Source: Spirochaetia bacterium (GTDB lineage Bacteria; Spirochaetota; Spirochaetia; UBA9216). Taken from it: a DNA stretch of 64,000 nt. The stretch spans positions 1,184,001 to 1,248,000 of the forward strand of contig OZ223269.1 in NCBI GenBank assembly GCA_965140585.1, read 5' to 3'. The notes under the pieces are model-generated. The model was not told the DNA's origin, did not search any database, and saw nothing but the letters and a program-made list of their open reading frames with translations. The translations under genes were made by a program, and so were the position numbers. Shown here piece after piece: positions 30,865-60,894 of the stretch (within the stretch, counting starts at the first letter, position 1; every line of letters starts with the position of its first letter).

Positions 30865-30900
30865 TACTTTTTTATTATAATATTGGAGATTTATAGTTAG

Positions 30901-31188
30901 ATGTTTTTTTATTTTAATGTAGCACTTACGTATCTTTTGATTGGTACTATCATATCTTTCCTTTTCTTTTTATTTTTTAAACGAAAAAGCCTTAAACATT
31001 TTCTTCCCTGCCTATTATTCGGAGTGATAGGTTCTTTTCTGGGAGGTTTCTTAAATCTTTTTATTACATTTGATCCTCTTAAGTATTTCAGCTTTTTCAA
31101 AAATATTTTTACGATAAGTATATTCATGCCACTTATAACATCTATAGTTGTTGTCTTTTTTTACAGTATAGTAGCCGAGAATAACTAA
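30901..31188 (+). CDS. Small membrane protein, GlsB/YeaQ/YmgE-like
   Basis: Three hydrophobic helices with a GVIGSFLGG glycine motif; GGAG RBS upstream. Confidence 0.6.
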   Translation: MFFYFNVALTYLLIGTIISFLFFLFFKRKSLKHFLPCLLFGVIGSFLGGFLNLFITFDPLKYFSFFKNIFTISIFMPLITSIVVVFFYSIVAENN

Positions 31189-31302
31189 TTTTAAATAAAT
31201 AGAGTGGAATGATTGTTGGTTTTTTCTTTATAGATCTCATATTTACTTAGGGTTAATTTATAGGAAAAAACGCTGCTTTTTATAATTATTTGGAAACATT
31301 TT

Positions 31303-31330
31303 ACTTCTGATAATATATATTCTGTCTACA
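31303..31330. other. Candidate dif (XerCD chromosome dimer resolution) site
   Basis: ACTTCTGATAA-TATATA-TTCTGTCTACA in 11-6-11 layout, 21/28 identical to B. subtilis dif as I recall it; gene orientation and local GC skew switch here. Confidence 0.7.
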
Positions 31331-31660
31331 TGTAATAATTATCATTCCAATTATTTGAACACTTTATAACCCCCGCTGCTCAAAATTACACGACTTTTGC
31401 CCCGGAACACAAACGAAACCTCTCCTCCATAAAAACCGAAACCGCCAAAAAGACCAAACGCGTGCTAAACAACAGTCAAAATCCAGAACTTCACCTTTAT
31501 GTATTACCTCACGTTGTGTTATTTTATATACACCTCTGCTCTGAATTACAGAAACTTTCATGCAATTATATGCACAATATATGAATACAATGAAGCATTT
31601 AATTTTCTAATGATTGCCAGTATTATTAATTAATTTTTATATATGTGTTATCATAACTGT

Positions 31661-32479
31661 ATGGAAAATAATACACCTTCATACGATTTCAACTCTCTGA
31701 TTGAGATACTTAATACACTTCTTGGTCCAAATGGTTGTCCCTGGGATCGAGTACAAACTCCTGACAGTCTTAAAGAAAACCTTATTGAAGAAGCATATGA
31801 ATGTTTTGATGCAATAATTGAGAATGACTATGAACATGCCTGTGAAGAATTGGGAGACGTTTTCTTACTTGCTGCCTTTATAAGCATAATCTATGAAAAA
31901 CAGAATAGATTCGGTATGAATGATGTTTTTAAATCTATTTGTGAAAAATTGATCAGAAGACACCCGCATATCTTCAGTGATAAACAGGCAGGTACTCCTG
32001 AAGAAGTTAAGCAGCAATGGGATGATATAAAGCTTAATGTAGAAGGAAGAATACATCATGATTCTGTTATGGATTCTCTTGCAAAGCATTTCCCCCCTCT
32101 TTTAAAAGCTTATAAGATTCAGAAAAAAGCAGCTAAAAATAACTTTGAATGGGACACAATTGATGATGTTATTGTCAAGCTTGATGAAGAAGTTGACGAA
32201 CTTAAACAGGCAGTCCAGAAAAATTCGGATGAAAATATTGAGGAAGAAATTGGAGACATTCTTTTTACTATTATAAATATATCAAGATATCTTAAAGTAG
32301 ATCCATCTACTGCACTTTCAAAAACCAACTCAAAGTTTTTAGAACGCTTTAGATATATTGAATCTGAAGTAAAATCACAAAATAAAAAGATGTCCGAAAT
32401 GTCTCTCGAACATCTTGATAAACTCTGGGATGAGGCAAAGTTAAAACAAACTGCTAATGATAAAGATCAAAGTAACTAA
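31661..32479 (+). CDS. mazG: Nucleoside triphosphate pyrophosphohydrolase MazG
   Basis: GCPWDRVQT, EEAYE, EELGD, KLIRRHPH and a second EEIGD domain; ATG 31661 preferred. Confidence 0.96.
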   Translation: MENNTPSYDFNSLIEILNTLLGPNGCPWDRVQTPDSLKENLIEEAYECFDAIIENDYEHACEELGDVFLLAAFISIIYEKQNRFGMNDVFKSICEKLIRRHPHIFSDKQAGTPEEVKQQWDDIKLNVEGRIHHDSVMDSLAKHFPPLLKAYKIQKKAAKNNFEWDTIDDVIVKLDEEVDELKQAVQKNSDENIEEEIGDILFTIINISRYLKVDPSTALSKTNSKFLERFRYIESEVKSQNKKMSEMSLEHLDKLWDEAKLKQTANDKDQSN

Positions 32480-40568: not shown

Positions 40569-41528
40569 TCAATTAACCGGATAAAGTTTCAATTTTGCAC
40601 CGTAATGATATGAATCAATTTCAAGACATTTTCGCCATTCATATCTGGCTTTTGCAGTATCACCCATTTTTTCATATATCTCACCAAGATAATAATGAGC
40701 ATCAGCCGCCTTCTCATTTTTTTCAATAATCTTACGGTATTCTTCTTCTGCCTTTAGAAATTCTTCCTTTTCAATGTATATATTGCCAAGCAGATATCTT
40801 GCTTTCTGCTCAACATTGAAATCGGTTGTTTTATTAAGCGTCCAGATTAAATATTCTTCCGCATCATCAATTTTCCCCATCTGGTTATAAGTCTGGGCAA
40901 GAACCAGATAAAGCATATCGGAAGGTTTTTCATCAATCGCTTTTTTATAATATTCTGAACTTAGTTCGTACTGACCAAGCTTGGAATACAACAACCCTAA
41001 ATACTCGAAAGTATCTTCTCCAGTATAACCATCTTCAACAGATTCTTCCAGATATTTTATAGAAAGATCTGTATAGAACTTTCCTTTTTGAAAATAGCAT
41101 TTACCGATGATGTAATTAATTTTGCCATCAATTTCAGTTTCTTTCAACAGAAGCGATTTTCTTAGATTTATAAGCGCGTCATCAAACAGTGGAATCTTTT
41201 CTTCAAGTGAAAATTGTGCTGCTCCGCGATAAAAATAAGAAAAGCCATTATATATAAGGGCTTTCTGATTCATGGGATCTTCTTTAAGGATTAGTTCACA
41301 TTTTTCATTAATCTGTTCGTAGTGTTTGTTTTCCCATAAAAGTTCAATAGTCTGTTCGTTATTCTGGGAAGGAGCTGAGCCAAGGATATTATTACCAATT
41401 CCGTTTTTAAATAGAGCGAAGCCTAAACCTGCAATAACTATCACAGCGATTACTATAATTATAATACGAGGCAGAATGCCGGACTGCTTTCTGCTGTTAA
41501 ATTTATATCTGTCTCCAGGTAGAATCAT
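40569..41528 (-). CDS. Membrane-anchored TPR protein
   Basis: N-terminal TM helix and multiple TPRs; directly upstream of mreB. Confidence 0.8.
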
Positions 41529-41549
41529 TTTATAGCCTTTTTATATAAA

Positions 41550-41882
41550 GACGGACCTATAAGCCGGGTTTTGTCTAGGATAACCATCTATCTAAATCTG
41601 ACATTACTGACAGACTTCAGCAGTTTACCCGCAGATTAGGCGAACAACCCTCTGCTGCTTAACTTTGCTCCAGGTGAGGTTTACCATGCCCTTTACGTCA
41701 CCATAAAGGCGGTGGGCTCTTACTCCGCCATTTCACCCTTACCCGGCATACCGGGCGGTATATTTTCTGTGGCACTTTCTGTAAAAAACTGTAAACAGTT
41801 TTCCCCCGGCTATTATCCGGCACCCTGTTCTGTGGAGCCCGGACTTTCCTCCCTGAATTTAAGGGCGGCTATCCGGTCCGTC
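41550..41882 (-). ncRNA. rnpB: RNase P RNA (bacterial class A-like)
   Basis: Minus strand has GAGGAAAGTCCGGGC near the 5' end and AAAACCCGGCTTA near the 3' end; complementary termini GACGGACC/GGTCCGTC form P1. Confidence 0.96.
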
Positions 41883-41942
41883 AAATAAATATTAACACAT
41901 CAAAATTGGTTTGCCAATTAAAGATTGATACTATGCAATTAC

Positions 41943-42749
41943 CTAGAAATCATCGTCATCATCGTCGTCTTCAAGATCGGCAAGACCTTCTGAATCATCA
42001 TCACTGAAGAGGCTCAGATCGTCCTTATCCTCATCGGCATCAATCGCTTCATAAAAAAGAATTCTGCTGCAGTAGGGGCAGAAATGTATATCTTCACCTT
42101 CCCTTACTTCATTAACGAACTGAGCAGGAAGAATCATATGGCAGCCTGAGCATACAGATTTTCTTACAGGAACTATACCAACACCTGATTTACTTCGAAT
42201 GATTCTTTCAAACTTAAAAAGAATTTCCTCATCCATATCAGGAGTAGTACTTTTTTCCATTTCTTCCAGTTCGATAAGTCTCTGACGTTTATCTTCACTT
42301 TCATTCTTGTTTTTCTCTTCTTCAGCAGAAAGTTCCTCTTCCTGCTGTTTGATGAGTTTTTCATCACGTTCAAGCAGATACTGAAATTCTTCAAGATCTT
42401 TTTCGGATTTAATTATATCCTTTCTGCATTCCTGTTCTTTTTCAGTAGCATCCTTGATTTCCTTATCAAGAATTTCGTACTCACGCTGGGTTTTAATTTC
42501 GTCCATCTGCTTTTCATATTTTTCCCGCAGACTTTCAGCTTCAGCGAGTCTGACACGCAGATTAGCAATTTTCTTTTTAGTTGCTTCTACCTTTTCATTC
42601 TTTTCGATATATGTTTTTTTAAGACGATTAAGAAGCTCATTCTTAGTAACCATCGCCTTGGGAATTTCCTGAATATCTCTCTCAATTTCAAATTTCTGTG
42701 AGAGAATATCCTGAAGCTCTTTCAGTTTGTCGAAGATATCTGTTTGCAT
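41943..42749 (-). CDS. Coiled-coil C4 zinc-ribbon protein (DUF164/CT398/HP0958-like)
   Basis: Long coiled coil, then CSGC...CPYCSRIL, then acidic tail; follows rpoD. Confidence 0.9.
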   Translation of the reverse strand: MQTDIFDKLKELQDILSQKFEIERDIQEIPKAMVTKNELLNRLKKTYIEKNEKVEATKKKIANLRVRLAEAESLREKYEKQMDEIKTQREYEILDKEIKDATEKEQECRKDIIKSEKDLEEFQYLLERDEKLIKQQEEELSAEEEKNKNESEDKRQRLIELEEMEKSTTPDMDEEILFKFERIIRSKSGVGIVPVRKSVCSGCHMILPAQFVNEVREGEDIHFCPYCSRILFYEAIDADEDKDDLSLFSDDDSEGLADLEDDDDDDDF

Positions 42750-42764
42750 ACGGCAACCCCTCTG

Positions 42765-44672
42765 TTAATTGTCTATATAATCTTTCAGCCGTCTGCTTCT
42801 TTTCGGGTGTCGCAACCTTCTTAAAGCTTTGGCTTCAATCTGTCTAATTCTTTCTCTTGTAACATTAAAATAGAGACCGACTTCTTCAAGAGTCAGCGAA
42901 TATCCGTCTTCAAGTCCAAACCGCATTTTAAGAACCTCCTGCTCTCGCGGCGGAAGTGTGCAGAGTACATCCTGCAGCTGTTCCTGAAGAAGTTTAAATG
43001 CAGTCTGATTTGCCGGGTTCTCTACGTCTTTATCCTCAATGAAATCACCAAGAAGCGAATCTTCTTCTTCTCCTATCGGAGTTTCCAGAGAAATAGGTTC
43101 GCGGGCAACATTTTTTACTGATTTTACCCTAAGGACGGACCAGCCCAGTCTGTCTGCGATTTCCTCATCAGTCGGTTCCCGCCCAAGCAGCTGCATAAGC
43201 TGTCTTGATTCTCTAACGACCTTGTTTATCTGCTCAATCATATGAACAGGAACACGGATTGTTCTTGCCTGATCGGAAATAGATCTTGTAATAGCCTGTC
43301 TAATCCACCATGTAGCATAGGTGGAAAATTTATATCCCTTGCGGTATTCAAATTTCTCAACAGCCTTGATAAGTCCGATATTTCCTTCCTGAACAAGATC
43401 AAAGAAATGAAGTCCGCGGTTAGTGTATTTTTTTGCAATACTGACAACAAGTCTAAGGTTAGCCTGAATTAGGCGATCCTTGGCTTTTTTCATCATACTT
43501 TTTCCGCGTTCTATCTCTTCGGAACGTTCAATGATTCGATCTATATTTTCTTCAAATTCGATCTCAATCTGACTGAGTTTTTTCTCCGCAACCTGAACCT
43601 GTCTGATCTTTTCTTTAATCTCCTCAGAGTTCATACAAAGATCTTCTTCAATTTCGCGTCGTTTTTCAGTTTGAGCTAGGCCTCTTCCGAGCGTACGTAG
43701 TTCACGCATACTGTTTACACGAAGTCTTCGCTCAATCTTCTGCTGTTTTTTCCGGTATTTAGTGATTTTTTCAGCTGCTATAGTAAAACGATCTGAAAAA
43801 TACAGAATTTCTTCCTGGTGGATATCAATAGCCTGTATTTTTTTAAGCATAGTCTTACGCTTCTTTAAAAGCTGCTCATCAACTATAATATCTCCACCCT
43901 TTTCAACTATATCTTCTTTCATTTCCATATAGCCTTTAAGCTGCGGTCGAATCTCTTTCAGATTTTCCCGGTAGAACTGAGTAAGTCTTCTTCTTTCTGC
44001 TAGAAATTCCGAAATTTCCTTTTTGGTAAGATCAAGCTCTCTCGGATCAACCTTGGAATACGTTTTAAGCATCAAATTGTAGAATTCGGGAATAATCATT
44101 CCTGAATTTTTAATCACGACCTTGATTATATTTTCACCTTCTTCCATCTGTTTGGAAAGTTCAACTTCCTGTTCAGCCGTAAGAAGATTTTCTTTGCCTA
44201 TTTCACGAAGATACAGTCTGATTGGATCATCGATTGAAGAATCTTTATCGCTGTAAACAATTCTCTTTTTACCTGAGCCCTGTTCATCCTCGTCATCTTC
44301 TTCATCGTTGTCTTCGCTGTCTTCATCGTCTTCTTCATCAAGGTCTTCTTCGTCGTCAACATCATCGTCACCGTCTACAAGATCTTCATCATCAGGTTCA
44401 TCTTCCGGAAGTTCCTCATCAGCAATGTCTTCTTCTTCATCAAACATTTCATCGATTTCTTCCGGCGCTTCATCTGATGACGGCGGTACTGCTGAATCAT
44501 CTACAATCGAGACCTTATTCTTTTCAAGCAAAGTCATTACTTCTTCTATTTTCTCAGAATTGACAATATTCTCCGGAAGGAGATCATTTATCTCATCATA
44601 AGTGATAGTTTTCTTGTTCTTTGCGTATTCAATTAATTTTTCTACAGCAGGTTCGGTCTGCAATTCTGACAT
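42765..44672 (-). CDS. rpoD: RNA polymerase primary sigma factor
   Basis: Region 1.1; [11 protein letters not shown]; [12 protein letters not shown]; [15 protein letters not shown]; TRERIRQIE. Confidence 0.99.
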
Positions 44673-46426
44673 TATATTCCCAACCTCAGTTTTTCAATTT
44701 CACGATCAATAAAGATCTTTTCTGATAGAAGTTTAACTTCGTCCTCTTCATTATTTTCCTTAGACAGCTTTTTTAATTTTAGTACAATTTCTTCCTTTTT
44801 CCTCAAAAGACTTTTATTTTTTATCTTTTTTACAGTATCTTTAATAATTTCTTCAGAATTGATACTGTATTCTCCGGAAGTAAGCTTCTGTGTAAGCAGA
44901 GAAACAACTTCACGGTCTTCTATTCTATCGAATAAGTCTTCCAAACCATTCAGATTTTTCCGGTAACATTCTTCCAATGCTATATAGATACCTCTTGCAT
45001 TGCCGTCCAACAGGTCCTCGGTGTCTATCCTTTTACGTACATAAGGATACTGCTCCCTGTTAGAAGCCAGTGCAATCATCAGAAACATTTCTGCTGAGAT
45101 TTCTGTTCTCTTATTCGTTGTTTTAGTTTCGTGCTGCGAAACCTTACCAGGATTCCGCCCCCTTTTTGTGACATCCGTTGAGACAGAGTAAAAATCAACA
45201 CCAAGCCTGTCAGCTATCTCTGTCATACAGCTGTTTTTACGTACTTCTGATGACAGGCTGTTCAGATATTCTTCGAGCCTATTAATTACAGCTTCTTTAC
45301 CTTCAGGTGTTGAAATATCTGATTCTTCTGCTGCGTTATCAAGAATATAGTCAAAGCTATTTATATTAGATTTTAAGACTTTTTGCAATGCCTTTTCACC
45401 TTCATTTAACAGTATATCGGCAGGATCAGCTTTTTCCGGTAGTATGATAACTTCTGAAAGCAGATTATTTTTTTCACAGGTTATAATAGCCTTTTGTGTT
45501 GCTTTTTTTCCCGCTGAATCTCCGTCAAAACAGATTAATATCTTATCAGCATATCTTTTTAAAACATTAGCCTGATTATCCGTATATGCAGTACCCAGGG
45601 GGGCAACTGCATTAGAGACTCCAGCCTGATGCATGGCTATTACATCAAGTTGACCTTCACATAGAACTGCATTTTTATTCTCTCTAATCGTTTTTATCGC
45701 GTGACTCAAACCATAAAGATTACTTTTTTTCAGGAAGATCTCAGTCTCCGGTGAATTGATATATTTAGGACCATTGTCTTCAAGAGTTCTTCCGCTGAAT
45801 GCGATAACATCTCCAATATTATTGGTAATCGGAAACATAATCCTTGCAGAAAACAACGGATAATATATACCGCGTGATGAAAAAATTCCGCTTTCTTCAA
45901 GGAAGTCTTTTGAATATCCTTTTTCTGTCAGGAACTTCCTCAGCCAGCTTCGATCAACCGGAGCCCACCCAATCTGAAACTTTTCAACAACATCATCAGT
46001 CAGGCCCCTCAGCTTCAGGTAGGCTCTGGCTACTTCAGCTTCACCGGATGTTTTCAGAATATAATGAAACGAGCCTGCAACCCGTCGGTACAGCTCTTTT
46101 AAAGCTTCACGTTTTTTATTATCGCCGGAGTTTTCGTATCGATCATTGACTTCGACACCTGCTTTCTTTCCAAGAAATTTAAGAGCTTCAGGAAATGTCA
46201 TATTTTCCATTTCCATTACAAAATCAAATATAGTCCCGCCCTTATGACAGCCAAAACAGTAAAAAAGATTTCTTTCCGGAGTAACCGAAAATGACGGAGT
46301 CTTCTCATTATGGAAAGGACATAATCCGACATATTTGGTTCCAGCACGTTTAAGAGTGACATACTGCCCTATGAGATCTACTATATTTATTCTGTTACTA
46401 ATTTCTTCTCTGGCGTTACTTTTCAT
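44672..46426 (-). CDS. dnaG: DNA primase
   Basis: [11 protein letters not shown] zinc finger; KYINSPET; TOPRIM EGQLD and DGDSAG. Confidence 0.98.
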
Positions 46427-47412
46427 TTTCCCTTTATATAAAGTTCATAAGATCTGTTGTGCTCGTCAAGTGTTTTTGAAAATACATGTTTTCCTGCCTG
46501 AGGATCTTCGAGAAGAAAATATAGATAATCGGTATGTTCAGGGTTAAAAGCAGCATTCAATGCAGTTTTTCCAGGATTGCAGATGGGCCCCGGCGGCAGT
46601 CCGCGGTTTATATAAGTATTAAAAGGGCTCTCAATGTCGAGATCCTGATAGTATATTTTCTCAGGATGGGGTTTTCCCTGAATTTCTGTAATTACATAGA
46701 CAACAGTTGCACATGAACCGAGGTACATATTTTTTTCAATGCGATTATAAAAAACAGAGGCTATATAAGGGGCTTCTTCGGCTCTTCTGTATTCTCTTTC
46801 AACAATTGAAGCCACTATTATTTTTTGATAAAGTTCTTCCTCACTGTAATCACCGTATGAAGGATATATTCCTTCAAGAACTGAAAAAAAAGATTCTTTC
46901 ATATAATCGGCCGCTTTTTCTGCCGGGTATTCTTTCGGAAAATAATAAGTATCAGGATATAAAAATCCTTCTAAATTATTCTCTTTCACATAATTAATGA
47001 ATTCTGATGATTCACAAATTCCATTTTTCTCAAGTATCTCAGCAATCGCCGTTGAAGTTAATCCTTCTGTAATAGTCACTTTGAACAACTCTTGCTCACC
47101 TTTTACAAGCAGATTAACTATCTCGGCAGTTGTTTTACCTTTCTCAATACTGTACAGCCCTGTTTTAATCATTCCGGAGGTATGGTTAAACCTTGAATAC
47201 AGCCTGAAAAAATCAGAACTCCTGATTAAGCCCTGATTAACAAGGTTGACAGCTATATCACCGGCCGAGTCACCTTTATTAACCTTAAAAACAGTCTGTT
47301 CCGGCATACCTTCCGGCGGAGAGTTCAGGTTACTGATAAAGATGCCGCCGGCCAAAGCAGCCAGCAGCATTATTCCTGCGAGAAAAAATAAAACTTTAAA
47401 AACAGCTTTCAT
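46423..47412 (-). CDS. mltG: Endolytic transglycosylase MltG
   Basis: LEGFLYPDTY, ASIVERE, VFYNR, SPFNTY...GLPPGPICNPG. Confidence 0.96.
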   Translation of the reverse strand: MKAVFKVLFFLAGIMLLAALAGGIFISNLNSPPEGMPEQTVFKVNKGDSAGDIAVNLVNQGLIRSSDFFRLYSRFNHTSGMIKTGLYSIEKGKTTAEIVNLLVKGEQELFKVTITEGLTSTAIAEILEKNGICESSEFINYVKENNLEGFLYPDTYYFPKEYPAEKAADYMKESFFSVLEGIYPSYGDYSEEELYQKIIVASIVEREYRRAEEAPYIASVFYNRIEKNMYLGSCATVVYVITEIQGKPHPEKIYYQDLDIESPFNTYINRGLPPGPICNPGKTALNAAFNPEHTDYLYFLLEDPQAGKHVFSKTLDEHNRSYELYIKGK

Positions 47413-47422
47413 TGTGCTCCTG

Positions 47423-50400
47423 TTATTTTATTAGTATAAATTCAACCCTTCTGTTCTTCCATCTGTTATCCAAATCACTGTGCGGAACAATGGGGCTGCT
47501 TCCGCCTATACCGACAGTTGACATCCTCAGGCTGCTGATACCGAGTTTAGAAAGATAGTTCTTAACAGTTTCAGCTCTTGCCTTGGAGAGAGGCAGCAAT
47601 TCTTCCTCCTGCTCCTTTTTTGCCCTGGCGGAATCAGACCACCAGACACTTACTGCATGGCCTTCTATCATTATTTTATAGCTTTCATATTTTTTAAGAA
47701 TTTCAGAAAGACGGCCAAGTACATATTCATTTTTAGCCTTTATTTCAGCATCTGTTGTAAGAAGCTCCGGACTGTCCGGCGCAAATGTAATATTTGCAAT
47801 TCTAATCTTTAATTTATCACCTTCTCTTACTACCAGAACGTCAATAGGTATAATTCCATAACTCTCATTTGAATTACCGAACTCATCTGTAACTTTAAGT
47901 CTGTACGGATAATCCTCTGCAGCACCTACCAGTTCACCTGTAGAACTCAGCCCGTCCCAGATTATTCTGTCTGAAGGCTGTCCCTTTCCGGAAAAACTTG
48001 TAAAAGCATTTCCTTCACGGTCGACAATGTCCAGAGACCAGGAATCAATAGCGCTCATATCACTCACTGCAAGACTGATTGTAAGTTCATCATCTATTCC
48101 GTCATTATCAGGAGAGAAAGGCTGTGGAGTCATCGCAACTGTAACTTTAGGAGCTGTGATGTCCGAGCTGAATTCCTTTGTAAGTGATTCAGGAAGATTG
48201 CCCTTTTTAAACTCAACACGGTATCTGGCCTTAAAAACGCCTTCAACAACTTTTCCGCTGTCATCAGTACCATCCCAGATAATTTTTTCAGGCAGCACAG
48301 TTCCTTCAAATGTTTTTACAGGGCTGACTCCATTTTTAAGTATTTCAAAACTCCACTTTGCAACACCCTCTTTCAAAGTTGTCAATGTGCTGAACTCAAT
48401 TCTGTCATTTCTGCTGTCATTATTCGGAGTGAATCCGCTGCTCTCGGCAGTTGCAAAAACATTAACCTGACGTGTGTCTATTACAATAGCCGGCAATGTC
48501 TTTTCAGTTTTGTTGCCGGCTGTGTCAACTGCAACGATCGAGTAGATATATGAGCCATCTGCAACCTTGTTACCTTGATTATCAGTACCATCCCATGTAA
48601 ATGATTCAGCAGACCCCTTCCAAAGATATTCTTTTACCGTGTTTCCATTCTTATCTTTAATAACTCCGGTAAATAAATTCTCAGTACTTGTTTTCTGACT
48701 TACTGTTATAGAGTCCTTCCTGTTATCGGAATCCGGAGAAAACAGAAGGTATTCTGCATTTATATCAATTGCCGGATAGACAGTGTCAATAACAAACTCT
48801 CTTGAAACTGCCTTTGAGATATCACCTTTTTCATATACAACCTCAAGCTCAGCCTGATATGTGCCGTCAACAGCTTTTCGTCCGTCATCGGTGAATCCAT
48901 CCCAGGTAAACTCCTTTTTAAGAGCACCCCGGCCCGTTATCTTTTTGATAGCTTTTCCGCTGCTGTCCTTAACATTTATGGTATATGACTGTATTCCGGC
49001 GGTTACATTGAGTACCGGACTGAATGTTATAATATCTTTTGTACCGTCACCGTCCGGTGAAAAAGCTTCTGTTCCTGCGGTAATTATTACCGGGGTGGCT
49101 TCAGTATCAAGCGAAAGTTTCAATTCCGTTGAATTACCGGTATTTCCGGCGCGATCCGAGGTATAAAGTCTGTAGCTGTAGTCGCCGTCTGCTGCAAGTT
49201 TACCATCATCGGTATATCCCAGCCACTCTATTGACTGATCTGCATTGCTGACCCATTTATAAGATTTTACGACTGCGCCTTCACCGTCGGTAATCTGACC
49301 ATACCAGACATCTTCTGTTGACGTCTCCTGATATATTACAACTGAATCCTTTTTTCCGTCTCCGTTGGGGCTGAAAATCTTAAGTGAAGCACTGGTTGAA
49401 GCCCTTGGAGCAGTCTTATCCACGGTAATCTGAGGAGAGTCTGTTACCGGCCGGTTTCCGTTTATATAAATAATCTGAAGAGTGGCTTTATATAATCCCT
49501 CGTCAAGATATTGACCTGAATCATTTTTTCCGTCAAAACTCACAATCGCGGGAACTTCAGATGCGCCTGAAAAAGTTCTGACAACAAGCCCGTTATTATT
49601 TCTTACCGTAAGTCTCCATTCAGTTATACCTGTTTTCACTGGAATTTCAGGCTGAAATACCAGTGTTTCTTTAGAACCGCTGATTCCGGGGGCAATATAT
49701 GCATTATCGAGGCTTAAAGAAATAGGTGTAGACTGGGTATTTATTATAATATTTGAAAGTTCACCTTCAGTTGAATTACCGGCTCGGTCAGTACTTGAAA
49801 TGTAATAGAAATATACGCCATCCGGAAGAAGAAGTTTTTTATCATCTTTACCATCCCAGCTGAATGTTTCAGGGCTCTGTTTCTGCCAGACAAAGTTCTT
49901 CATAACCTTTCCGGATGTGTTCTTAATAACAGCATTCCAGCTGTCTTCTCCGGATCCTGACTGAGTAATTTCAAGTTCATCCTTGTTACCGTCGTTATTT
50001 GGGCTGAAAATTTTATTATCAGAGTTGATGTCTCCGATTGCTAATTCCGGTGCAGTATTATCAACAACGATTGCATATTTGGAAGTAGTTGAAATATTAT
50101 TATTATCATCCCAGGCCTGCATATAAAAAATATAAACACCGTCATCAACTACAGAACCGTTGTTATTCATTCCGTCCCATCGGATACTATCCGGAATATC
50201 AACTCCTTTTTCAACATAAAAAAGCCTTAAAAAGAAATTTGCGATTCCGGAGGTATTTTCAGGACGTTTTTCCTTGTTTTCAATACGTTTAACTTCATTG
50301 CCTTTCTCATCTTCTATTATGAAGGCAAATCCCTTTATATACCTTGAATCTGTAATTTTAACCGGAATTGTAATTTCATCCTTGATTCCATCATTATTCG

Positions 50401-51658
50401 GTGAAATATAGGCGATTATTTTTTCATCATCAGGACCGGCATTGATATTTCCTGGATTATCCGATGATTTTTTTACCGATTTGCTTACAGCATCATTGAC
50501 TGCTCTTTTTTCAACAGTTTTTTTTAAAACGGCAGATTTGTCCCTTCCTCCATCATCATACGGAGGAAAAACAAAACTTACATTATCAGAGCTCTGATCA
50601 TCCTGAGTTGCATCCTGATCTTCAACAGCCTCTTCAAAGCCAGAAAGATCAAGTTCGATTGCCGGTGCATCCCTATCAACAACTCCGAGATTCAGCACCG
50701 CACCGGCGCCGACCGACCAGAGATCATTTGCCATAGGTGATGCGGCAACAGTTGTCTGGACATCACTCTGCCCCCAGCCCCGTTCGGCAAGGCTGAGAAA
50801 ATCATCATCCTTATTAAAGTTGGTTGTAAGATCAACATATATACCGAATGCGGGGATAAGCGCCGATGCATCGCCTGCTACGAGCTCACGTACATCCAGT
50901 GCAGCTGTGGTTTTCAGACCTATAAAGTCAAAAAATTTGGCATCAGCACCAAGACTCAGTCTCATATTTATATTGTCAAAATTAAAAAGCGAAGGGATAA
51001 TCAAATCAGAGTTCAAAGCGAGAAATATATTATCTGTATTAACCAGATCAAAGGCTGCGCCTCCGCCGATGGTGAAAGGAGATGATATATCTGTTGTTGC
51101 AAATCCGGAATACCCGAAGTTGTTCAAGGCCGCAGCCCATCGAAAATCCTTCATGAAGGAGATATCGCCTTCATATTTTATAAATCCTATATCTGCGCCA
51201 AGATACCAGCTTTCGCCGGCAGTAAAATCAATACCGATTCCTGCTAAAAGGTCCGGATACAGTTCTTTTGCAAATGAAGCACTTAATCCGCCCTGAAATG
51301 TTCCGGGATTAATTTCAGTCAATGAAGTATTAGTCCCCATAAGAAAACCGTTACCTGTAATTACACCGGCACGTGTCGGGTAAGAAAGCCCCAACCCGAA
51401 GGCACTGCCGTCATATCCGGAATCTGCGGCATCTCCGAACAGTGATGTAAAATTAATTTCAGCGGTGATTCTCTGCTGCAAGGCAGATGCAGCCGGATTG
51501 ATGATATCAGCAGACGGAGATTCCGTAGAGGTATAGCTGCCGCCGGTAAGGGTCAGAGACGGCGATCTTAAAAGATTAGCGGTTTCATTTCCTTCAGCGG
51601 AGATTACTGCTGCGGTTAAAATTGAAATTAAAAAAAACAGAACTTTCTTTTTCATCAT
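47423..51658 (-). CDS. Large envelope protein: putative beta-barrel + 8 FlgD-Ig-like repeats + OmpA_C peptidoglycan-binding domain
   Basis: Signal peptide; NPA motif and amphipathic strands; eight (F/I)SPxxDGxxD...WDG repeats; C-terminal IEGHA..LS..RA..V..YL..NRRVEF; AAGGAAGG RBS supports ATG 51658. Confidence 0.85.
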   Translation of the reverse strand: MMKKKVLFFLISILTAAVISAEGNETANLLRSPSLTLTGGSYTSTESPSADIINPAASALQQRITAEINFTSLFGDAADSGYDGSAFGLGLSYPTRAGVITGNGFLMGTNTSLTEINPGTFQGGLSASFAKELYPDLLAGIGIDFTAGESWYLGADIGFIKYEGDISFMKDFRWAAALNNFGYSGFATTDISSPFTIGGGAAFDLVNTDNIFLALNSDLIIPSLFNFDNINMRLSLGADAKFFDFIGLKTTAALDVRELVAGDASALIPAFGIYVDLTTNFNKDDDFLSLAERGWGQSDVQTTVAASPMANDLWSVGAGAVLNLGVVDRDAPAIELDLSGFEEAVEDQDATQDDQSSDNVSFVFPPYDDGGRDKSAVLKKTVEKRAVNDAVSKSVKKSSDNPGNINAGPDDEKIIAYISPNNDGIKDEITIPVKITDSRYIKGFAFIIEDEKGNEVKRIENKEKRPENTSGIANFFLRLFYVEKGVDIPDSIRWDGMNNNGSVVDDGVYIFYMQAWDDNNNISTTSKYAIVVDNTAPELAIGDINSDNKIFSPNNDGNKDELEITQSGSGEDSWNAVIKNTSGKVMKNFVWQKQSPETFSWDGKDDKKLLLPDGVYFYYISSTDRAGNSTEGELSNIIINTQSTPISLSLDNAYIAPGISGSKETLVFQPEIPVKTGITEWRLTVRNNNGLVVRTFSGASEVPAIVSFDGKNDSGQYLDEGLYKATLQIIYINGNRPVTDSPQITVDKTAPRASTSASLKIFSPNGDGKKDSVVIYQETSTEDVWYGQITDGEGAVVKSYKWVSNADQSIEWLGYTDDGKLAADGDYSYRLYTSDRAGNTGNSTELKLSLDTEATPVIITAGTEAFSPDGDGTKDIITFSPVLNVTAGIQSYTINVKDSSGKAIKKITGRGALKKEFTWDGFTDDGRKAVDGTYQAELEVVYEKGDISKAVSREFVIDTVYPAIDINAEYLLFSPDSDNRKDSITVSQKTSTENLFTGVIKDKNGNTVKEYLWKGSAESFTWDGTDNQGNKVADGSYIYSIVAVDTAGNKTEKTLPAIVIDTRQVNVFATAESSGFTPNNDSRNDRIEFSTLTTLKEGVAKWSFEILKNGVSPVKTFEGTVLPEKIIWDGTDDSGKVVEGVFKARYRVEFKKGNLPESLTKEFSSDITAPKVTVAMTPQPFSPDNDGIDDELTISLAVSDMSAIDSWSLDIVDREGNAFTSFSGKGQPSDRIIWDGLSSTGELVGAAEDYPYRLKVTDEFGNSNESYGIIPIDVLVVREGDKLKIRIANITFAPDSPELLTTDAEIKAKNEYVLGRLSEILKKYESYKIMIEGHAVSVWWSDSARAKKEQEEELLPLSKARAETVKNYLSKLGISSLRMSTVGIGGSSPIVPHSDLDNRWKNRRVEFILIK

Positions 51659-51688
51659 GTCCTTCCTTAAGGGTATCAAAGGAATTTA

Positions 51689-51883
51689 TCATTTTTTGAT
51701 TAAAAAATCAGAATTATTCTCATAAAGACTTTTAATGTTTTCCATTTCTTCTATAGAAAGAATGTCGTAAAGATATGTTTCGATGTCGTCATGAAGATCC
51801 TGCATATTTTTATCAAGCAGGTTTTCATGTTCCTTTAGAAAGAGATAAAGACCGGCGATTTTATGTCCTTCAACAGTAATCAA
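51689..51883 (-). CDS. Small hypothetical protein (64 aa)
   Basis: TTG start overlaps the upstream TGA; fills the gap inside a co-oriented run. Confidence 0.7.
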   Translation of the reverse strand: MITVEGHKIAGLYLFLKEHENLLDKNMQDLHDDIETYLYDILSIEEMENIKSLYENNSDFLIKK

Positions 51884-52821
51884 AGCTCAAACTCCAATTC
51901 TTCTTTGGCTAGAAAGATCTCCAGATCGCTGTTTTCTATATGCTTTTCATACCATTTCGCTGAATTGAGTATTTTATATATCTTTTTATCTTCATATTTT
52001 GGTTCATGATGAAAAAGCACCAGTTTGGGAACCTTCCATTCTGCGGCGAAGTCTACAGCAAGACTGTAGGATGAATGCCCCCAGTCATATTTTTCTATGG
52101 CTTCACCGAGTGTATACTGTGAATCAACTACAATTAAATCAGTATCCTTGTAAAATCTGATATTCTCTTCAGTTTTTTCAAAATCACGCTCTGTAAGCTC
52201 TGTATCAGTAGAGAAAATAAAAGTTTTACCGCCTTCCTCTATTCTATAAGAAAAACAGCCCCCAGGATGCTTAACCCTGCGCCAGGAAATCTCAGTAGGA
52301 CCTACTTTAATCGTATTTTCTTCCATATGGTGAAAATGCATTTCTGCAGCAAAATCATCCATGGTGACCGGAAAATAAGGATATTTCATCTGCTCTCTGA
52401 GATGTTTTTCAAGATCTTTAATTGGACTGTAGAAATGAAGTTTATATCCTTTTATATAAGCGGGGTCAAAAAACGGCAGTCCCTGAATATGATCCCAGTG
52501 AAAGTGAGTAAAAAATATATGAAGTTCTTTCACTTTATCATGTTTTTTAAGAATATCGATCCCCAGTTCTCTTATACCTGAACCTGCGTCAATAATGATA
52601 AGATTTCCGCTGTCGGGTCGAACCTCGATACATGTAGTATTTCCGCCGATTGTTTCAAGCAGATATGGAGGAACACTTGCAAGGAATGCATCCCGGCTTT
52701 CCTGAGAGACAAGATCTGACGGCTGAATTCTCTGTACAATAGCAGCAATCTTACTCTGCAGCTGAGAAGGTTTTACAGGCGTCGGTACAGAACCTCTGAC
52801 ACCCCAGAATTTTATTTTCAT
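51880..52821 (-). CDS. MBL-fold metallo-hydrolase
   Basis: FWGVRGS, GGNTTC, DAGSG, THFHWDHIQG, WGHS, FHHEP; start ATG 52821 or GTG 52830. Confidence 0.92.
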   Translation of the reverse strand: MKIKFWGVRGSVPTPVKPSQLQSKIAAIVQRIQPSDLVSQESRDAFLASVPPYLLETIGGNTTCIEVRPDSGNLIIIDAGSGIRELGIDILKKHDKVKELHIFFTHFHWDHIQGLPFFDPAYIKGYKLHFYSPIKDLEKHLREQMKYPYFPVTMDDFAAEMHFHHMEENTIKVGPTEISWRRVKHPGGCFSYRIEEGGKTFIFSTDTELTERDFEKTEENIRFYKDTDLIVVDSQYTLGEAIEKYDWGHSSYSLAVDFAAEWKVPKLVLFHHEPKYEDKKIYKILNSAKWYEKHIENSDLEIFLAKEELEFEL

Positions 52822-52840: not shown

Positions 52841-53281
52841 TTAAACTGTTAACAGTTTTTCATTCTGTCTCTGATTAACTCTGTCTTCAATTTCTTCATA
52901 AGAAACAACAGAGCCTTTATCAATGCCAGGACAGCTTTTTCCAAGCTCTTTCCATTCATCGACACTTCCGAGAAAACTGCTCCAGAACGGAAAGGTCCGG
53001 CACTGGACAGGTCTTATCCCGTAGACAGAACATCCATCATTTTCCCAGAAAATACAGTCATAATTCTTCTTCTCATTTAAACTTATTCGTTTTGTAACGC
53101 CTAAATCTATTACTCTGCAGTATTTTTCAAGGAAATCCTTTTCAGACAATTTAAAATGGGCTGACATATTTTCGAGGTCATTTTTCGAAATAAAGACATA
53201 CCCGGGATCAAACCTGCAGCATGCAGAACATCTCTGACATTCAAATCTAAGTCCGTCTTTATAGAAAATATCCTCAGTCAT
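52841..53281 (-). CDS. YkgJ family cysteine-cluster protein
   Basis: CQRCSACC, CIF..GCSVY..RPVQCRTFPFW, CPG; real start ATG 53281 (track ORF runs on through the tRNA). Confidence 0.9.
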   Translation of the reverse strand: MTEDIFYKDGLRFECQRCSACCRFDPGYVFISKNDLENMSAHFKLSEKDFLEKYCRVIDLGVTKRISLNEKKNYDCIFWENDGCSVYGIRPVQCRTFPFWSSFLGSVDEWKELGKSCPGIDKGSVVSYEEIEDRVNQRQNEKLLTV

Positions 53282-53329
53282 ATCCCTTCCAGTATCATTA
53301 TAAGCTACAAATAAAAACAAAAAAAGTCT

Positions 53330-53367
53330 AAAAAAAAAGCCTTTTCCCTGATTCAAGGAAAAGGCTT
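53330..53367 (-). terminator. Intrinsic terminator after tRNA-Tyr
   Basis: Minus strand aagccttttcc-loop-ggaaaaggctt followed by a T-tract. Confidence 0.85.
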
Positions 53368-53449
53368 TGGGGAGAGAAGGATTCGAACCTTCGAAGGCTG
53401 AGCCAACAGATTTACAGTCTGCCCCCTTTGGCCACTCGGGAACCTCCCC
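53368..53449 (-). tRNA. tRNA-Tyr (GTA), no encoded CCA
   Basis: GGGGAGG acceptor; anticodon arm GCAGA-CTGTAAA-TCTGT; long variable arm; GGTTCGAATCC T arm. Confidence 0.97.
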
Positions 53450-53624
53450 GTAGAATAAAGTCAGCTGCCAGGCACTGGATGAATTAACCATGACTTTACT
53501 CACCAACTTTGTACTATAAATCATTTTTTTTGACAAGCCTTTCTGGCTAAATTCCCAATATATTTCAGACAATTTCTATTCTAAGGCATATATAAAAACG
53601 ACCAATTTATTAATACTTAAAATG

Positions 53625-53653: not shown

Positions 53654-53677
53654 ACCACCACAGTTAAGGACTGTTAA

Positions 53678-53751
53678 GCCGCCTTAGCTCAGCTGGCCAG
53701 AGCACGTGACTTGTAATCTCGGGGTCGTCAGTTCGAATCTGACAGGCGGCT
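53678..53751 (+). tRNA. tRNA-Thr (TGT), no encoded CCA
   Basis: GCCGCCT/AGGCGGC acceptor; CTTGTAA anticodon loop; GTCAGTTCGAATCTGAC T arm. Confidence 0.96.
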
Positions 53752-53760
53752 GTAATCTTC

Positions 53761-57506: not shown

Positions 57507-59252
57507 TCAGGAGGCTTCCATCTTTATAACCATGGACATCAGATTACGAAACTCTTTAAGATGCTTCGCTCTGGTCTTCAGCAGGCTTACAAGCGTTATT
57601 GATTTACCCTTAAGCAGATAATGCCTGTTCAGCTGAATCTTCATGACATTAGTTGTACTGTTAACCAGTTCTTCGAATATTTTTTCAAGTCCGCCCAGCG
57701 AATCCATTCCGGCATCAAGAAGAGTCTTGACTTCACGGTTCTTGTGTACAACCATCGTTCGGTAAATCCTCTGCTGGGAAGGTTCAGAAATAAGAGAAAT
57801 ACGTAATTTATGAAAAATCTTACCGTCCTCTTCCTCCGGAGCAAGTGAGTCATCAGAAGCCTTTATCTTGCTTTCAAGATCCTGCAGTGCTATGCTGTGA
57901 TTAAGAAGCCTGTCTCTTGTTATACGGTTCTGTGCAAGGATTCCCTTTTCAAGTATTGAAACAACTTCGCTCAAATGTCCCTGATAAAAACTTACGACAT
58001 AGTTATAAAGAAGATTTAGCGACTTTGTATGTGTAAAAAACGGAAGCCCCATTTTCTGATAATCTATAGCGGCATACTTTCTATAGTTACAAAACTCGAT
58101 AAACCGTTTTCCCTTGAAAATACGGCCTATTTCCTTCTCAATGTATTCTTTCTGAATCTCGGTATAGATTTCTTCAAGCTTTTCCCTGGCCTTCTTGCGA
58201 AGTATTTCCCTGTAGATCATCTTGAAGGGCTGCTCAACATCGACATAATTGATTTTCAGGTAGGGATCTTTTAAAAAGAACCTTAGAAGTTCAAGAATAG
58301 GCATTTTCCTGTTAAAGGCCTTTATACTGAGGATAAATTCCTTAAGTTCATCCTGATTTTCTTCAGGCCATATCTCCGACCCTTCGAAACTTCTGAGAAA
58401 CTCAATGAGGTATCTGTTTATTCGGTATGTTTCATTGAGTTCAGCCCCCCGGTTAACTGCCTTGTAAAGTAGTCTCAAATCATCTAAACAAAGCATAACT
58501 GATGCATTTTTAAAAAAATGTTTCCCGCCGTCCTCTCCGCTTCTGTTTGGGGTAAAACTGAATTTCTGAAAAAAAGCAGTATATGGAAAAAGTATCAGAT
58601 CTTTTAGTCTGTATAAGGGTTTAAGACTGTTATCTATATCATTGTACAACAGCTCGGGAATGCTTGTTATATATTCATCAATCCGCCGTTCGGCCTCTTC
58701 CCTTATAAAATCCTTTCGTCCTGTAGCTGCGTATAGCTGTACAAGCTCATCCATACTGATAAAATCTTCAAGCTCATTCTTACACTGCTCATACATCCCC
58801 CTGATAATATACAGAAGGCTTGATTCAAAAACTCCGGCTTCCATCCAGAGCTTTCTGTAAAGCTCTCTGAAGGCGAATGTTCTGCTGTATATGTTAAAAA
58901 CTTCCTCTGCAAACTGGGGAGTCAGATTTCTGCTTTCAAAGCCCGTAATTCCAGGTTGCTTTTTATTAATATATTTTTTAACCTGCTTTATTCTTCGGTC
59001 TATAAGGATATCGGTGATTTTTCTTCCGCTAAGCTTGCTTCGGATAAAAAGAATCGTGCGTCTGAACCAGCTCATAAGATGCAGGTCTTCGTTTATATGT
59101 CCTTCGATTGAATCTTCAGATTCTGCCGCGGGAATCTCATTATTATCGACCGTCTGTGTATTCAGACTGCTGTTTATTCTATCTAGAAGTGTAGTTCTTT
59201 CTTTTTCAGACAGTGAATGGGATAGTTCATCAAGTACATTCTTCTTGTACAT
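57507..59252 (-). CDS. Conserved helical hypothetical protein (resembles spirochaete DUF5312-type proteins)
   Basis: 581-aa ORF with GAGG RBS and LS..ER..LL..I start; family call is from memory only. Confidence 0.6.
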   Translation of the reverse strand: MYKKNVLDELSHSLSEKERTTLLDRINSSLNTQTVDNNEIPAAESEDSIEGHINEDLHLMSWFRRTILFIRSKLSGRKITDILIDRRIKQVKKYINKKQPGITGFESRNLTPQFAEEVFNIYSRTFAFRELYRKLWMEAGVFESSLLYIIRGMYEQCKNELEDFISMDELVQLYAATGRKDFIREEAERRIDEYITSIPELLYNDIDNSLKPLYRLKDLILFPYTAFFQKFSFTPNRSGEDGGKHFFKNASVMLCLDDLRLLYKAVNRGAELNETYRINRYLIEFLRSFEGSEIWPEENQDELKEFILSIKAFNRKMPILELLRFFLKDPYLKINYVDVEQPFKMIYREILRKKAREKLEEIYTEIQKEYIEKEIGRIFKGKRFIEFCNYRKYAAIDYQKMGLPFFTHTKSLNLLYNYVVSFYQGHLSEVVSILEKGILAQNRITRDRLLNHSIALQDLESKIKASDDSLAPEEEDGKIFHKLRISLISEPSQQRIYRTMVVHKNREVKTLLDAGMDSLGGLEKIFEELVNSTTNVMKIQLNRHYLLKGKSITLVSLLKTRAKHLKEFRNLMSMVIKMEAS

Positions 59253-59264
59253 TAATCACCTCTG

Positions 59265-59894
59265 CTAAATAACATTATTAATAATAACTGCGGCCTTTCC
59301 CTTAAAAAGTCTGACCTTAACTTCTGTTCCAACCGAAACATTGCTCAAACTACAACTGTCGGCCTCCCAGACTGTCTCTTTGAGTTCCCATTTTAAACCG
59401 CTTGTGGATATTATACACGGATATTCGCCTATCGGAAAGATGGATATTGTCTGACCGTTTCTTACCCTGAACATTTCTTCGGTTTCTACCGGGATGATAG
59501 TCTCTGTATCAGTAATCCAACGTACTGGATGCGGCTGTTTTCTGAATATGTTCAGTATTCCAAGCGTATGATCAAGCCGGCCTCCGCCTCCTCCTATCAA
59601 AGTCACATTTTTAAATCCATTCTGAAAAAGGTATTCAACTGCCAGCTCAGTATCAGTAAAATCCTTATCAACAGGATGCAGAACTTTTCTGTCGGCAGGT
59701 AGATTTTTTATCCCTGATTTGTCTACAACCGAATCCATATCGCCTATAAATATATCAGGAACTATTCCATAGGATAATGAAAGATCCCAGCCTGAATCCG
59801 CTGCTACTATCAGCGAAGATTCCTGAAGTATGTCTTTAATATCCCCTTTTCCAGGTCCAAATCCTCCGGTTACAACAGCTCCAATTTTGTCCAT
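59265..59894 (-). CDS. thiN: Thiamine diphosphokinase
   Basis: AADSG, GDMDS, KDFTD and GGRLDH motifs. Confidence 0.93.
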
Positions 59895-59899
59895 ACACG

Positions 59900-59929
59900 A
59901 TTATATCAGATTTTATAATTTTTTATCAA
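59900..59929 (-). promoter_or_regulatory. sigma70 promoter for thiN (leaderless geometry)
   Basis: Minus strand TTGATA-18 nt-TATAAT with TGn; ATG 5 nt after the -10 box. Confidence 0.7.
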
Positions 59930-59945
59930 AGTTAAATGAATTTCC

Positions 59946-59973
59946 TAAAGAGGATTTTTCAAATACCGACCAT
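59946..59973 (+). promoter_or_regulatory. sigma28 (FliA) promoter of flaB
   Basis: TAAAG-aggatttttcaaat-ACCGACCA matches TAAA-N16-CCGA. Confidence 0.7.
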
Positions 59974-59980
59974 TTTAAAA

Positions 59981-60018
59981 GGGACAAGGATGTCCCGTGT
60001 CAAATAATCAAGGAGGAT
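59981..60018 (+). promoter_or_regulatory. Two CsrA-type sites in the flaB leader
   Basis: Hairpin GGGACA-AGGA-TGTCCC (ACAAGGATGT consensus) plus CAAGGAGGA overlapping the RBS. Confidence 0.8.
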
Positions 60019-60021
60019 TAT

Positions 60022-60894
60022 ATGATCATTAATCACAACATCAGTGCGATGTTTGCCCAGAGAAGTCAGAAATTCAATTCATGGGCAATGGACTCAGACA
60101 TGAGTAAGCTTTCATCAGGTATGCGGATTAACAAAGCTGGTGATGATGCTTCCGGTCTTGCCGTTTCAGAAAAGATGAGATCACAGATTAGAGGTCTCAA
60201 CAGAGCTGAGAAGAATGCAGAAGACGGAATATCATTTATTCAGGCTACTGAAGGCTACCTCGGTGAAACAACTCAAATTCTTCAGAGACTCAGAGAACTC
60301 GCAGTACAGTCTTCCAACGGTATTTATTCAAGTGAAGACAGAATGCAGATTCAGGTTGAAGTTTCACAGCTGATTGACGAAGTCAACAGAATTGCATCAC
60401 ACGCACAGTTCAACGGAATGAATATGCTCACAGGCCGCTTTGCTAAGGAAGGCGCTGAAAATTTCGTTACAGCAAGTATGTGGCTGCATATCGGTGCAAA
60501 TATCGATCAGCGTGAAAGAATGTACATTGGTACAATGACAGCCCAGGGTCTCGGTCTTCAGCAGGCAGGCGGTTACGCTCATTCTGCTAGTTTTATCTCC
60601 ATATCAACACCGGACAAAGCTAACATCTCGATAGCTATGATTGATACTGCAATCAGAAAAGTTAACAAACAGAGAGCCGATCTGGGTGCTTACCAGAACC
60701 GGCTTGAATATGCAGCTCAGGGACTGTCCATAGGTGCTGAAAATCTGCAGGCTGCAGAATCCAGAATCAGGGACGCCGATATGGCTAAGGAAATGGTTAC
60801 TTACGTTAAGGATCAGATCCTTGTTCAGGCTTCTACAGCAATGCTGGCACAGGCTAACCAGAAAGGTCAGTCAGTACTTCAGCTCTTTCAGTAG
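60022..60894 (+). CDS. flaB: Periplasmic flagellar filament core protein FlaB
   Basis: MIINHN start; [30 protein letters not shown]; SRIRDADMA; AGGAGG RBS. Confidence 0.98.

Follow-up and report, generated by a model that had tools for sequence, protein, structure and literature searches.

The flagella of spirochaetes rotate between the cell wall and an outer membrane that is only loosely attached. A phylum-wide survey (bioRxiv 10.1101/2021.05.31.446380) reported that Spirochaetes are without Lpp and Pal, and proteins combining a barrel with an OmpA domain are the only type of tether known in them. In E. coli, the width of the periplasm is set by the length of Lpp, as cited in PMC13547282. 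Here we describe a gene located in a stretch of 64,000 nucleotides, hereafter the window, from the genome of Spirochaetia bacterium (Spirochaetota; Spirochaetia; UBA9216; GenBank assembly GCA_965140585.1, contig OZ223269.1, positions 1,184,001 to 1,248,000). Its product joins a predicted FadL/PorV-like beta-barrel, eight immunoglobulin (Ig)-like domains and an OmpA-like domain in one chain. Judging from sequence comparisons and structure prediction, we consider it moderately probable that this protein is a long single-chain tether and spacer of the OmpA type, connecting the outer membrane to the wall. A sequence-only reading of the same stretch had recognised these parts and proposed a rod fixing the distance between outer membrane and peptidoglycan; its observations on the sequence were confirmed in every particular.

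In the proposed arrangement, a plugged FadL/PorV-like barrel would reside in the outer membrane, with both ends of the chain in the periplasm. An unbroken string of eight Ig-like domains, namely a cap (R1), three pairs of A and B domains, and a second cap (R8), would follow and would make up a rod of set length, while the terminal OmpA-like domain would grip the cell wall or a wall-associated layer. Between lineages, the length of the rod would shift in steps of A-B pairs, mostly by four domains at once.

The open reading frame (ORF) lies on the minus strand as a single open frame at 47423..51679. The ATG at 51658, preceded by the ribosome-binding site AAGGAAGG, is the likely start and gives a product of 1411 amino acids (aa), the domains of which are listed in Table 1. 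The translated N-terminus, MMKKKVLFFLISILTAAVISA/EG, resembles by eye a type I signal peptide and has no lipobox cysteine, in line with the signal peptide reported earlier. It is followed by an N-terminal domain (N-domain) of about 320 aa, in which the early NPA motif, previously noticed in a region of about 300 aa, occupies residues 54-56. In a 40-sequence alignment, N54 and P55 are invariant and A56, Q62 and R63 are at least 90% conserved.

The suggestion that this region forms a barrel was borne out by structure prediction. With a 53-sequence alignment, AlphaFold2 returned a confident 14-stranded barrel with an N-terminal plug carrying the NPA motif (pLDDT 88.9, pTM 0.86), and the plug was modelled at pLDDT 94-97 over residues 31-70; a run with 10 sequences, which was repeated with 53, had given a pLDDT of 62 and the same strands. 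Alternating hydrophobicity with z>1 was found for 8 of the 14 predicted strands. In a Foldseek search against the Protein Data Bank (PDB), 8gl6_F ranked first and 6h3i_F was close (TMq 0.56), both being chain F of the type IX translocon, which we take to be PorV; many FadL/TodX entries followed at TMq 0.41-0.51, and OmpG and BcsC were also high-ranking. A profile search of PDB sequences gave weak matches only, five of the seven being E. coli FadL (E 0.19-0.44), and in these the invariant NPA of the N-domain family aligns with the NPA of FadL. The NPA/NAA plug motif has been defined for FadL-like barrels (PMC8407342).

The likeness to PorV and FadL, also part of the sequence-only reading, holds at the level of fold and through the sequences of relatives, since 7 of 53 relatives matched PorV_fam (NCBIfam; best 1.2e-7) and 9 matched PorQ (best 1.2e-4), but it does not extend to family models matching the barrel of the window itself: the first 336 residues gave no Pfam or NCBIfam match, even at E <= 10. 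None of the 53 N-domain relatives matched a Pfam barrel model below E 0.01; DUF5723 was a weak match of one of them (E 0.14), and a Pfam scan of 35 relatives consisting of the barrel only returned no matches. Model and sequence comparisons together lead us to conclude that the N-domain probably belongs to the FadL/PorV superfamily as a 14-stranded barrel with a plug, representing a subfamily without a Pfam model. FadL-family barrels have an even number of strands and a plug entering from the periplasm; the chain should therefore exit the barrel into the periplasm.

Alternatively, the protein could be mainly a FadL-type channel for the uptake of hydrophobic compounds; the Ig chain and the OmpA-like domain would then only hold the channel in place or stabilise it, or hand cargo on through a wide periplasm. 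FadL shares the NPA-bearing plug and the 14 strands, a barrel-only subfamily exists, and the OmpM proteins of diderm Firmicutes are described as both tether and channel (PMC10628300). However, the barrel is matched by no FadL/Toluene_X or other transporter model, the nearest sequence family reached through relatives is PorV/PorQ, whose members are not known to be nutrient channels, and eight position-conserved domains would be a costly means of positioning alone. An uptake channel of this kind thus appears unlikely.

In the window, the barrel is separated from the repeats by a linker, earlier described as acidic and flexible, which is acidic in its first half and Lys-rich in its second. The eight repeats proposed earlier were recovered as Ig-like domains tiling residues 410-1275 (50431-47834) with no gaps. 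Seven of them carry [FI][ST]Pxx[DS]... and W[DL]G, and the third (648-753) is degenerate (IAPGISG, FDG), yet aligns over its full length. [quoted passage not shown] The Pfam model Big_13 was matched as well, and the FlgD structure 3c12 matches the repeats at E 1.8e-5. The scores of the repeat and OmpA family models are far beyond chance, and the earlier assignment of the repeats to FlgD_ig and type-B C-terminal domains (CTDs) is upheld by FlgD_ig, CHU_C and TIGR04131, the latter two scoring above their cut-offs. The loops with the conserved SPN[ND]DGxxD motif may provide metal sites where neighbouring domains meet.

Two other functions were considered. The FlgD hook-cap identity was rejected, since the match is to FlgD_ig only, the N-terminal domain of FlgD is lacking, and the best FlgD equivalog model reaches 104 bits against a cut-off of 230. 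Because the repeats also match CHU_C, Big_13 and general Ig-like models, the likeness to FlgD is one of fold type. It is decidedly improbable that the protein organises the flagellar compartment through FlgD-like Ig domains touching the periplasmic flagella or their sheath, or fencing the filaments; no flagellar gene is adjacent in the loci inspected, although the window contains a flagellin gene some 8 kb from the gene described here, the repeats do match 3c12, and the family has been seen in Spirochaetota only. That the protein is left over from, or part of, a type IX-like system, with a PorP/PorV-like barrel and type-B CTD cargo signals, is extremely unlikely. The CTD-like domains are eight internal tandem copies placed before another domain, not one terminal signal, and should sit at the barrel's periplasmic end; among the 43 window ORFs scanned no T9SS component was detected, PorU turning up only in the form of a weak hit to the repeats. 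These points stand against the scores of TIGR04131 and CHU_C above their cut-offs, the PorV-like top fold match and the annotation of homologues as gliding motility-associated proteins.

The tether and spacer reading is strengthened by the number and order of the repeats. A hidden Markov model (HMM) built from the eight window repeats was run on every homologue collected, and 132 distinct homologues were complete, that is, had a full N-domain and an OmpA-like domain. Eight repeats were found in 101 of them, 12 in 16, four in 9, 10 in 2, 16 in 2, and 11 and 14 in one each; the number is thus even in 131 of 132 and a multiple of four in 128 of 132. The junctions are tight, with a median gap of 0 and gaps above 15 aa at 4 of 981. 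Within the window, repeats 2, 4 and 6 are alike, as are 3, 5 and 7, while 1 and 8 are distinct. When compared with the 63 other eight-repeat proteins, repeats 1 to 8 had the same-numbered repeat as best match in 63, 61, 58, 48, 57, 59, 46 and 63 of them, respectively. In proteins of other lengths, the best match of repeat 8 is the last one: repeat 4 in all nine with four repeats, and repeat 12 in 14 of 14 with twelve.

The shorter and longer arrays follow the same plan. The layout of a four-repeat protein is R1-A-B-R8. Where there are 12 repeats, the first four (1-4) and the last four (9-12) mostly equal repeats 1-4 and 5-8 of the window, and in 156 of 160 cases an inner repeat is best matched, within its own protein, by one an even number of positions away. 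On an N-domain tree (FastTree, 167 N-domains), which has many weak branches and omits rows of fewer than 280 profile positions as well as P0002 and L001, near-copies of the window, a minimum of 9 changes is required for the 12-repeat state and of 5 for the 4-repeat state. As far as can be judged from sequence, the array is old, is ordered cap-(A-B)n-cap, and has changed its length repeatedly in whole A-B units. Taken together, the positional matches and the stepped counts describe a rod of the form cap-(A-B)n-cap whose length is conserved and stepped, and the spacer idea gains new support because the array is stepped and position-conserved. A further feature of repeat 1, present in this repeat only and strongly conserved in distant homologues, is an insertion of about 23 residues (IENKEKRPEN...FF.RLFYVEKGVDIP) at residues ~455-490; it might serve to attach the rod to the barrel.

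In intimin and invasin, too, Ig repeats come after an N-terminal barrel. In such inverse autotransporters an open-lumen barrel is threaded by a linker to exported Ig domains, and a periplasmic LysM is present. In the protein described here, the barrel lumen is predicted with high confidence to be filled by its own plug, and the linker between barrel and repeat 1 (median 0 aa) does not exceed 30 aa in 83 of 132 homologues, which is too short to thread the pore. It is longer than 30 aa in 49 of 132 and reaches 70 aa in the window, a trait of the window's own clade. No intimin-type barrel or LysM model was matched in Pfam. The lumen-filling plug and the general lack of a threading linker argue against an intimin-like export of the repeats. 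The best NCBIfam match overall was Lsa66_OmpA (E 9.7e-95, residues 984-1409), and Lsa66 reportedly bound laminin, fibronectin and plasminogen in vitro and was detected by immunofluorescence on live cells, on which grounds it has been described as a surface adhesin (PMC3130794). Equivalog identity with Lsa66 was nevertheless rejected, the match being partial and scoring 318 bits against a cut-off of 700; it spans only the last three to four repeats and the OmpA-like domain, and the characterised OmpA-like domains considered (PorE, Pal, OmpA) work from the periplasmic side. A surface adhesin with outwardly exported repeats, whether Lsa66-like or inverse-autotransporter-like, is accordingly very improbable.

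The C-terminal OmpA-like domain reported earlier was recovered as PF00691 at residues 1303-1403 (47.8 bits against a cut-off of 27.2). It is matched by 24 solved OmpA-like domains at E <= 1e-3, including 6jfw (PA0833-PD, 6e-10) and, second best, 5jir_B (Treponema pallidum Tp0624, 8e-10). The canonical ligand motif given in PMC5104382 is TD(x)7NxxLSxxRA, of which the Asp, Asn and Arg are critical. The pocket of the window protein reads GHAVSVWWSDSARAKKEQEEELLPLSKARA, and the residues conserved across 91 domains of the family are IEGHA, LS..RA (including the Arg) and NRWKNRRVEF. The sequence-only reading had relied on this domain to bind peptidoglycan; with the canonical Asp and Asn missing from the pocket, that claim is weakened and binding cannot simply be assumed. 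Wall binding by the C-terminal domain is plausible and not a given.

What the analysis establishes is the architecture, the predicted fold of the barrel, the order of the repeats and its conservation, and that the labelled relatives are all Spirochaetota. Interpreted as a tether and spacer, the protein would place a rigid rod in the periplasm, bind peptidoglycan at the far end, and contribute to the spacing of outer membrane and wall around the periplasmic flagella. Several observations weigh against this interpretation. The bias towards multiples of four could stem from unequal recombination between the most similar repeats, with no need for selection on length; the closest pair in the window is R2-R6 (81 bits). 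The pocket Asp and Asn are not conserved in the 91 family domains, which have a variable insertion of 8-10 aa there, and Tp0624, with a comparable Asp-to-Ala change, did not bind diaminopimelate (PMC5104382). The authors of that work suggest an adaptation to the ornithine-type peptidoglycan of treponemes. The gene neighbourhood shows no conserved functional link outside one clade. Finally, 33 of the 34 rows of one well-supported clade nested in the family lack both the repeats and the OmpA domain, these 33 barrel-only proteins being about 340-380 aa long, which implies that the barrel also does something by itself, independently of rod and anchor.

One could hypothesise further that the protein is a spirochaete "periplasmic ruler", in which a barrel-anchored Ig rod, varying in A-B steps, would fix the distance between outer membrane and wall and thereby define the flagellar compartment. 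This extension is tentative, and we consider it rather doubtful. If it is true, lineages with different repeat numbers should differ measurably in the spacing of outer membrane and wall or in the size of the flagellar bundle; an Ig domain is roughly 4 nm long.

A word-based search found 11 long homologues sharing the N-domain, and the N-domain profile built from them was run over 1.84 billion representatives, yielding 373 proteins at E <= 1e-3 and 301 at E <= 1e-10. They fall into two size classes, long proteins of ~900-2250 aa and barrel-only proteins of ~333-381 aa; proteins P0057-P0171 (~333-382 aa) make up the barrel-only subfamily. A word-based profile search gave 13 barrel-only proteins, mostly on contigs of 2-9.5 kb; P0172 (partial, 299 aa) is labelled "hypothetical protein [Spirochaeta sp.]" and the other 12 carry no label. 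Barrel-only genes may be one half of a split, two-gene form, a separate Ig-OmpA gene following. Genomes were also scanned with two peptide patterns taken from close relatives, and all 21 loci found belong to Spirochaetota, including Breznakiella homolactica and Treponema primitia; the closest is in a "Spirochaetia bacterium" metagenome-assembled genome (MAG), with 97% identity. Every organism name on a homologue is Spirochaet* or Treponema. An unrelated protein of 805 aa, P0218, combines OmpA, thrombospondin type-3 (TSP_3) repeats and DUF5723, and thus barrel-spacer-OmpA designs occur elsewhere too.

In public databases, members derived from MAGs are named [quoted passage not shown], "OmpA family protein", "FlgD immunoglobulin-like domain containing protein" or "flagellar motor protein MotB, partial". 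The names referring to gliding motility, FlgD and MotB are misleading and are corrected here, and a barrel family outside all Pfam models is now defined. A literature search, the coverage of which did not include subscription journals, found no description of the barrel-Ig-OmpA architecture; the stepped repeat numbers and the same-position matching of repeats are new here. For the way in which spirochaetes hold their outer membrane, and at what distance, the family is a concrete and genetically manipulable candidate. It offers a countable length variable (4, 8, 12 or 16 domains) with conserved repeat positions, and B. homolactica and T. primitia, which carry members, are cultured and non-pathogenic species.

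Table 1. Features of the barrel-Ig-OmpA gene and its downstream neighbour in the window
Feature	Position	Strand	Basis
Putative signal peptide, residues 1-21, MMKKKVLFFLISILTAAVISA	51596..51658	-	Translation; predicted helix 3-15
N-terminal plug/hatch, residues 22-63; NPA 54-56 (51491-51499), QR 62-63	51470..51595	-	AlphaFold2 and alignment
Predicted 14-stranded beta-barrel, residues 64-324	50687..51469	-	AlphaFold2, Foldseek
Linker, residues 340-409, acidic then Lys-rich; peculiar to one clade	50432..50641	-	Alignment
Ig-like repeat 1 (410-542), barrel-proximal cap, ~23-aa insertion	50033..50431	-	Repeat matching
Ig-like repeats 2-7 (543-1172), three A-B pairs	48143..50032	-	Similarity matrix; FlgD_ig, CHU_C, TIGR04131
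Bounds of repeats 2-7: 543-647, 648-753, 754-857, 858-964, 965-1067, 1068-1172	residues	-	Repeat alignment
Ig-like repeat 8 (1173-1275), OmpA-proximal cap	47834..48142	-	Repeat matching
OmpA-like C-terminal domain (1276-1411) and stop codon, divergent ligand pocket	47423..47833	-	PF00691, PDB matches
mltG (YceG family), 10 bp downstream, then dnaG and rpoD with overlapping stops/starts	46423..47412	-	E 1.7e-82

Three genes whose boundaries overlap or nearly do so, mltG, dnaG and rpoD, follow the putative tether gene on the minus strand, and a Zn-ribbon gene comes next. The 10-bp gap to mltG was found as described, the stop codon being at 47423-47425 and the start of mltG at 47412. A 414-bp gap beyond the Zn-ribbon gene is filled by the RNase P RNA (41544-41884, minus strand; RF00010, 266 bits), and past rnpB there are a TPR gene, mreB, mreC, mreD, a PBP2-type transpeptidase gene and rodA. 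The proposed co-expression with the elongasome is not supported, since dnaG, rpoD, the Zn-ribbon gene and rnpB intervene before the mre genes. Co-transcription with mltG is suggested by the 10-bp gap and the overlapping downstream genes only. A consensus scan for promoters and terminators over 41400-52100 showed no excess over shuffled sequences (26 vs 24.8; 13 vs 8.1), and in the same scan no terminator was seen between the tether gene and mltG.

The linkage to mltG put forward in the sequence-only reading holds within one clade and fails beyond it. The upstream neighbour, 221 bp away, is a gene of the metallo-beta-lactamase (MBL) fold, and the order CxxC-MBL-tether gene-mltG-dnaG-rpoD is found in all eight loci of the window's clade that reach far enough to be assessed, but in none of the six assessable Treponema/Breznakiella loci is the gene followed by mltG (a seventh locus with a complete gene, L020, extends only 89 bp downstream). 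In three Treponema/Breznakiella loci, the neighbours are transporters, methyltransferases and LRR proteins, which have no relation to one another or to cell-wall genes. The adjacency to mltG thus reflects shared ancestry in one clade and is not a family-wide link. No paralogues of the tether gene were found in the window or the 21 loci. In two loci (L010, 9863-13856; L015, 5046-10636) the homologue is split into two overlapping frames, owing to a frameshift or an assembly error.

Some other features of the window deserve mention. Genes for tRNA-Tyr(GTA) and tRNA-Thr(TGT) are located at 53368-53449 (minus strand) and 53677-53752 (plus strand), respectively. The former sits inside ORF 52841..53572, which encodes a CxxCxxCC domain; the true start of this gene must therefore be downstream of the tRNA. 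Homologues of the CxxCxxCC gene at other loci match only from about residue 40-100 on. An LptF/LptG permease pair, MurJ and the flagellin are encoded at 2791-5141, 6319-7881 and 59830-60894, all on the plus strand; with LptF/LptG and MurJ present, an envelope of the lipopolysaccharide-exporting type is likely. A DUF5312 protein is encoded at 57507-59252. The gene at 11205-13898 (minus strand) encodes 897 aa, of which the last ~150 residues are a complete GreA/GreB factor, with a 740-aa N-terminal extension that has no Pfam match. At ~30000-34000 the G+C content is 31.5-33.5%, compared with 36-43% in the rest of the window, and both the sign of the GC skew and the gene orientation switch; ORF 29989-30864 has no Pfam match.

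Among the known systems, Tp0624 (PDB 5JIR) resembles the C-terminal domain of the window protein in having lost the canonical Asp while keeping LSxxRA. Barrel and Ig repeats are both missing from it, and the two domains that it has besides are unrelated (PMC5104382). Lsa66 of Leptospira interrogans (LIC10258; NF053608) shares the last Ig-like repeats and the OmpA-like domain, the match covering model positions 165-579 of 581; with 581 model positions, it is too short for a 14-stranded barrel and a full array. The T. pallidum proteins TP0548, TP0859 and TP0865, compared here by description, are also 14-stranded and FadL-like, have a plug with NPA/NAA and extend at the C-terminus into the periplasm, but this extension is a small three-helix/TPR-like bundle and not Ig plus OmpA (PMC8407342).

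The same kinds of parts, namely a 14-stranded FadL-family barrel, CTD-like Ig domains and OmpA_C, occur in the PorP-PorE-type-B-CTD complex of the T9SS, in which OmpA_C forms the bridge to peptidoglycan. [quoted passage not shown] PorE carries TPR and propeller domains and is a lipoprotein, whereas the window protein is one chain with eight internal Ig copies predicted to be on the periplasmic side. The earlier view that parts similar to those of the T9SS are fused here into one chain therefore stands as regards the parts but not the topology, the CTD of the T9SS being on the surface and the Ig domains of the window protein having to be periplasmic. It is a possibility that the T9SS PorP/PorE/type-B-CTD module and the single-chain protein share an ancestral barrel-Ig-OmpA tether.

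With Lpp, the window protein would share only the proposed principle of a fixed-length protein setting the spacing between outer membrane and wall; Lpp itself, a small helical lipoprotein with a covalent link to peptidoglycan, has a much shorter span, and its sequence and fold are unrelated. The closest parallel in layout is E. coli-type OmpA, likewise a single chain with an N-terminal outer membrane barrel and a C-terminal OmpA-like domain. The OmpA barrel is the 8-stranded OmpA_membrane domain, whereas that of the window protein is predicted to be 14-stranded, plugged and FadL/PorV-like and gave no PF01389 match; the canonical Asp and Asn are both absent from the ligand pocket of the window domain; and the short hinge of OmpA is replaced by ~870 aa of Ig domains. 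We class the protein as a putative new form of OmpA-type tether and not as a new category.

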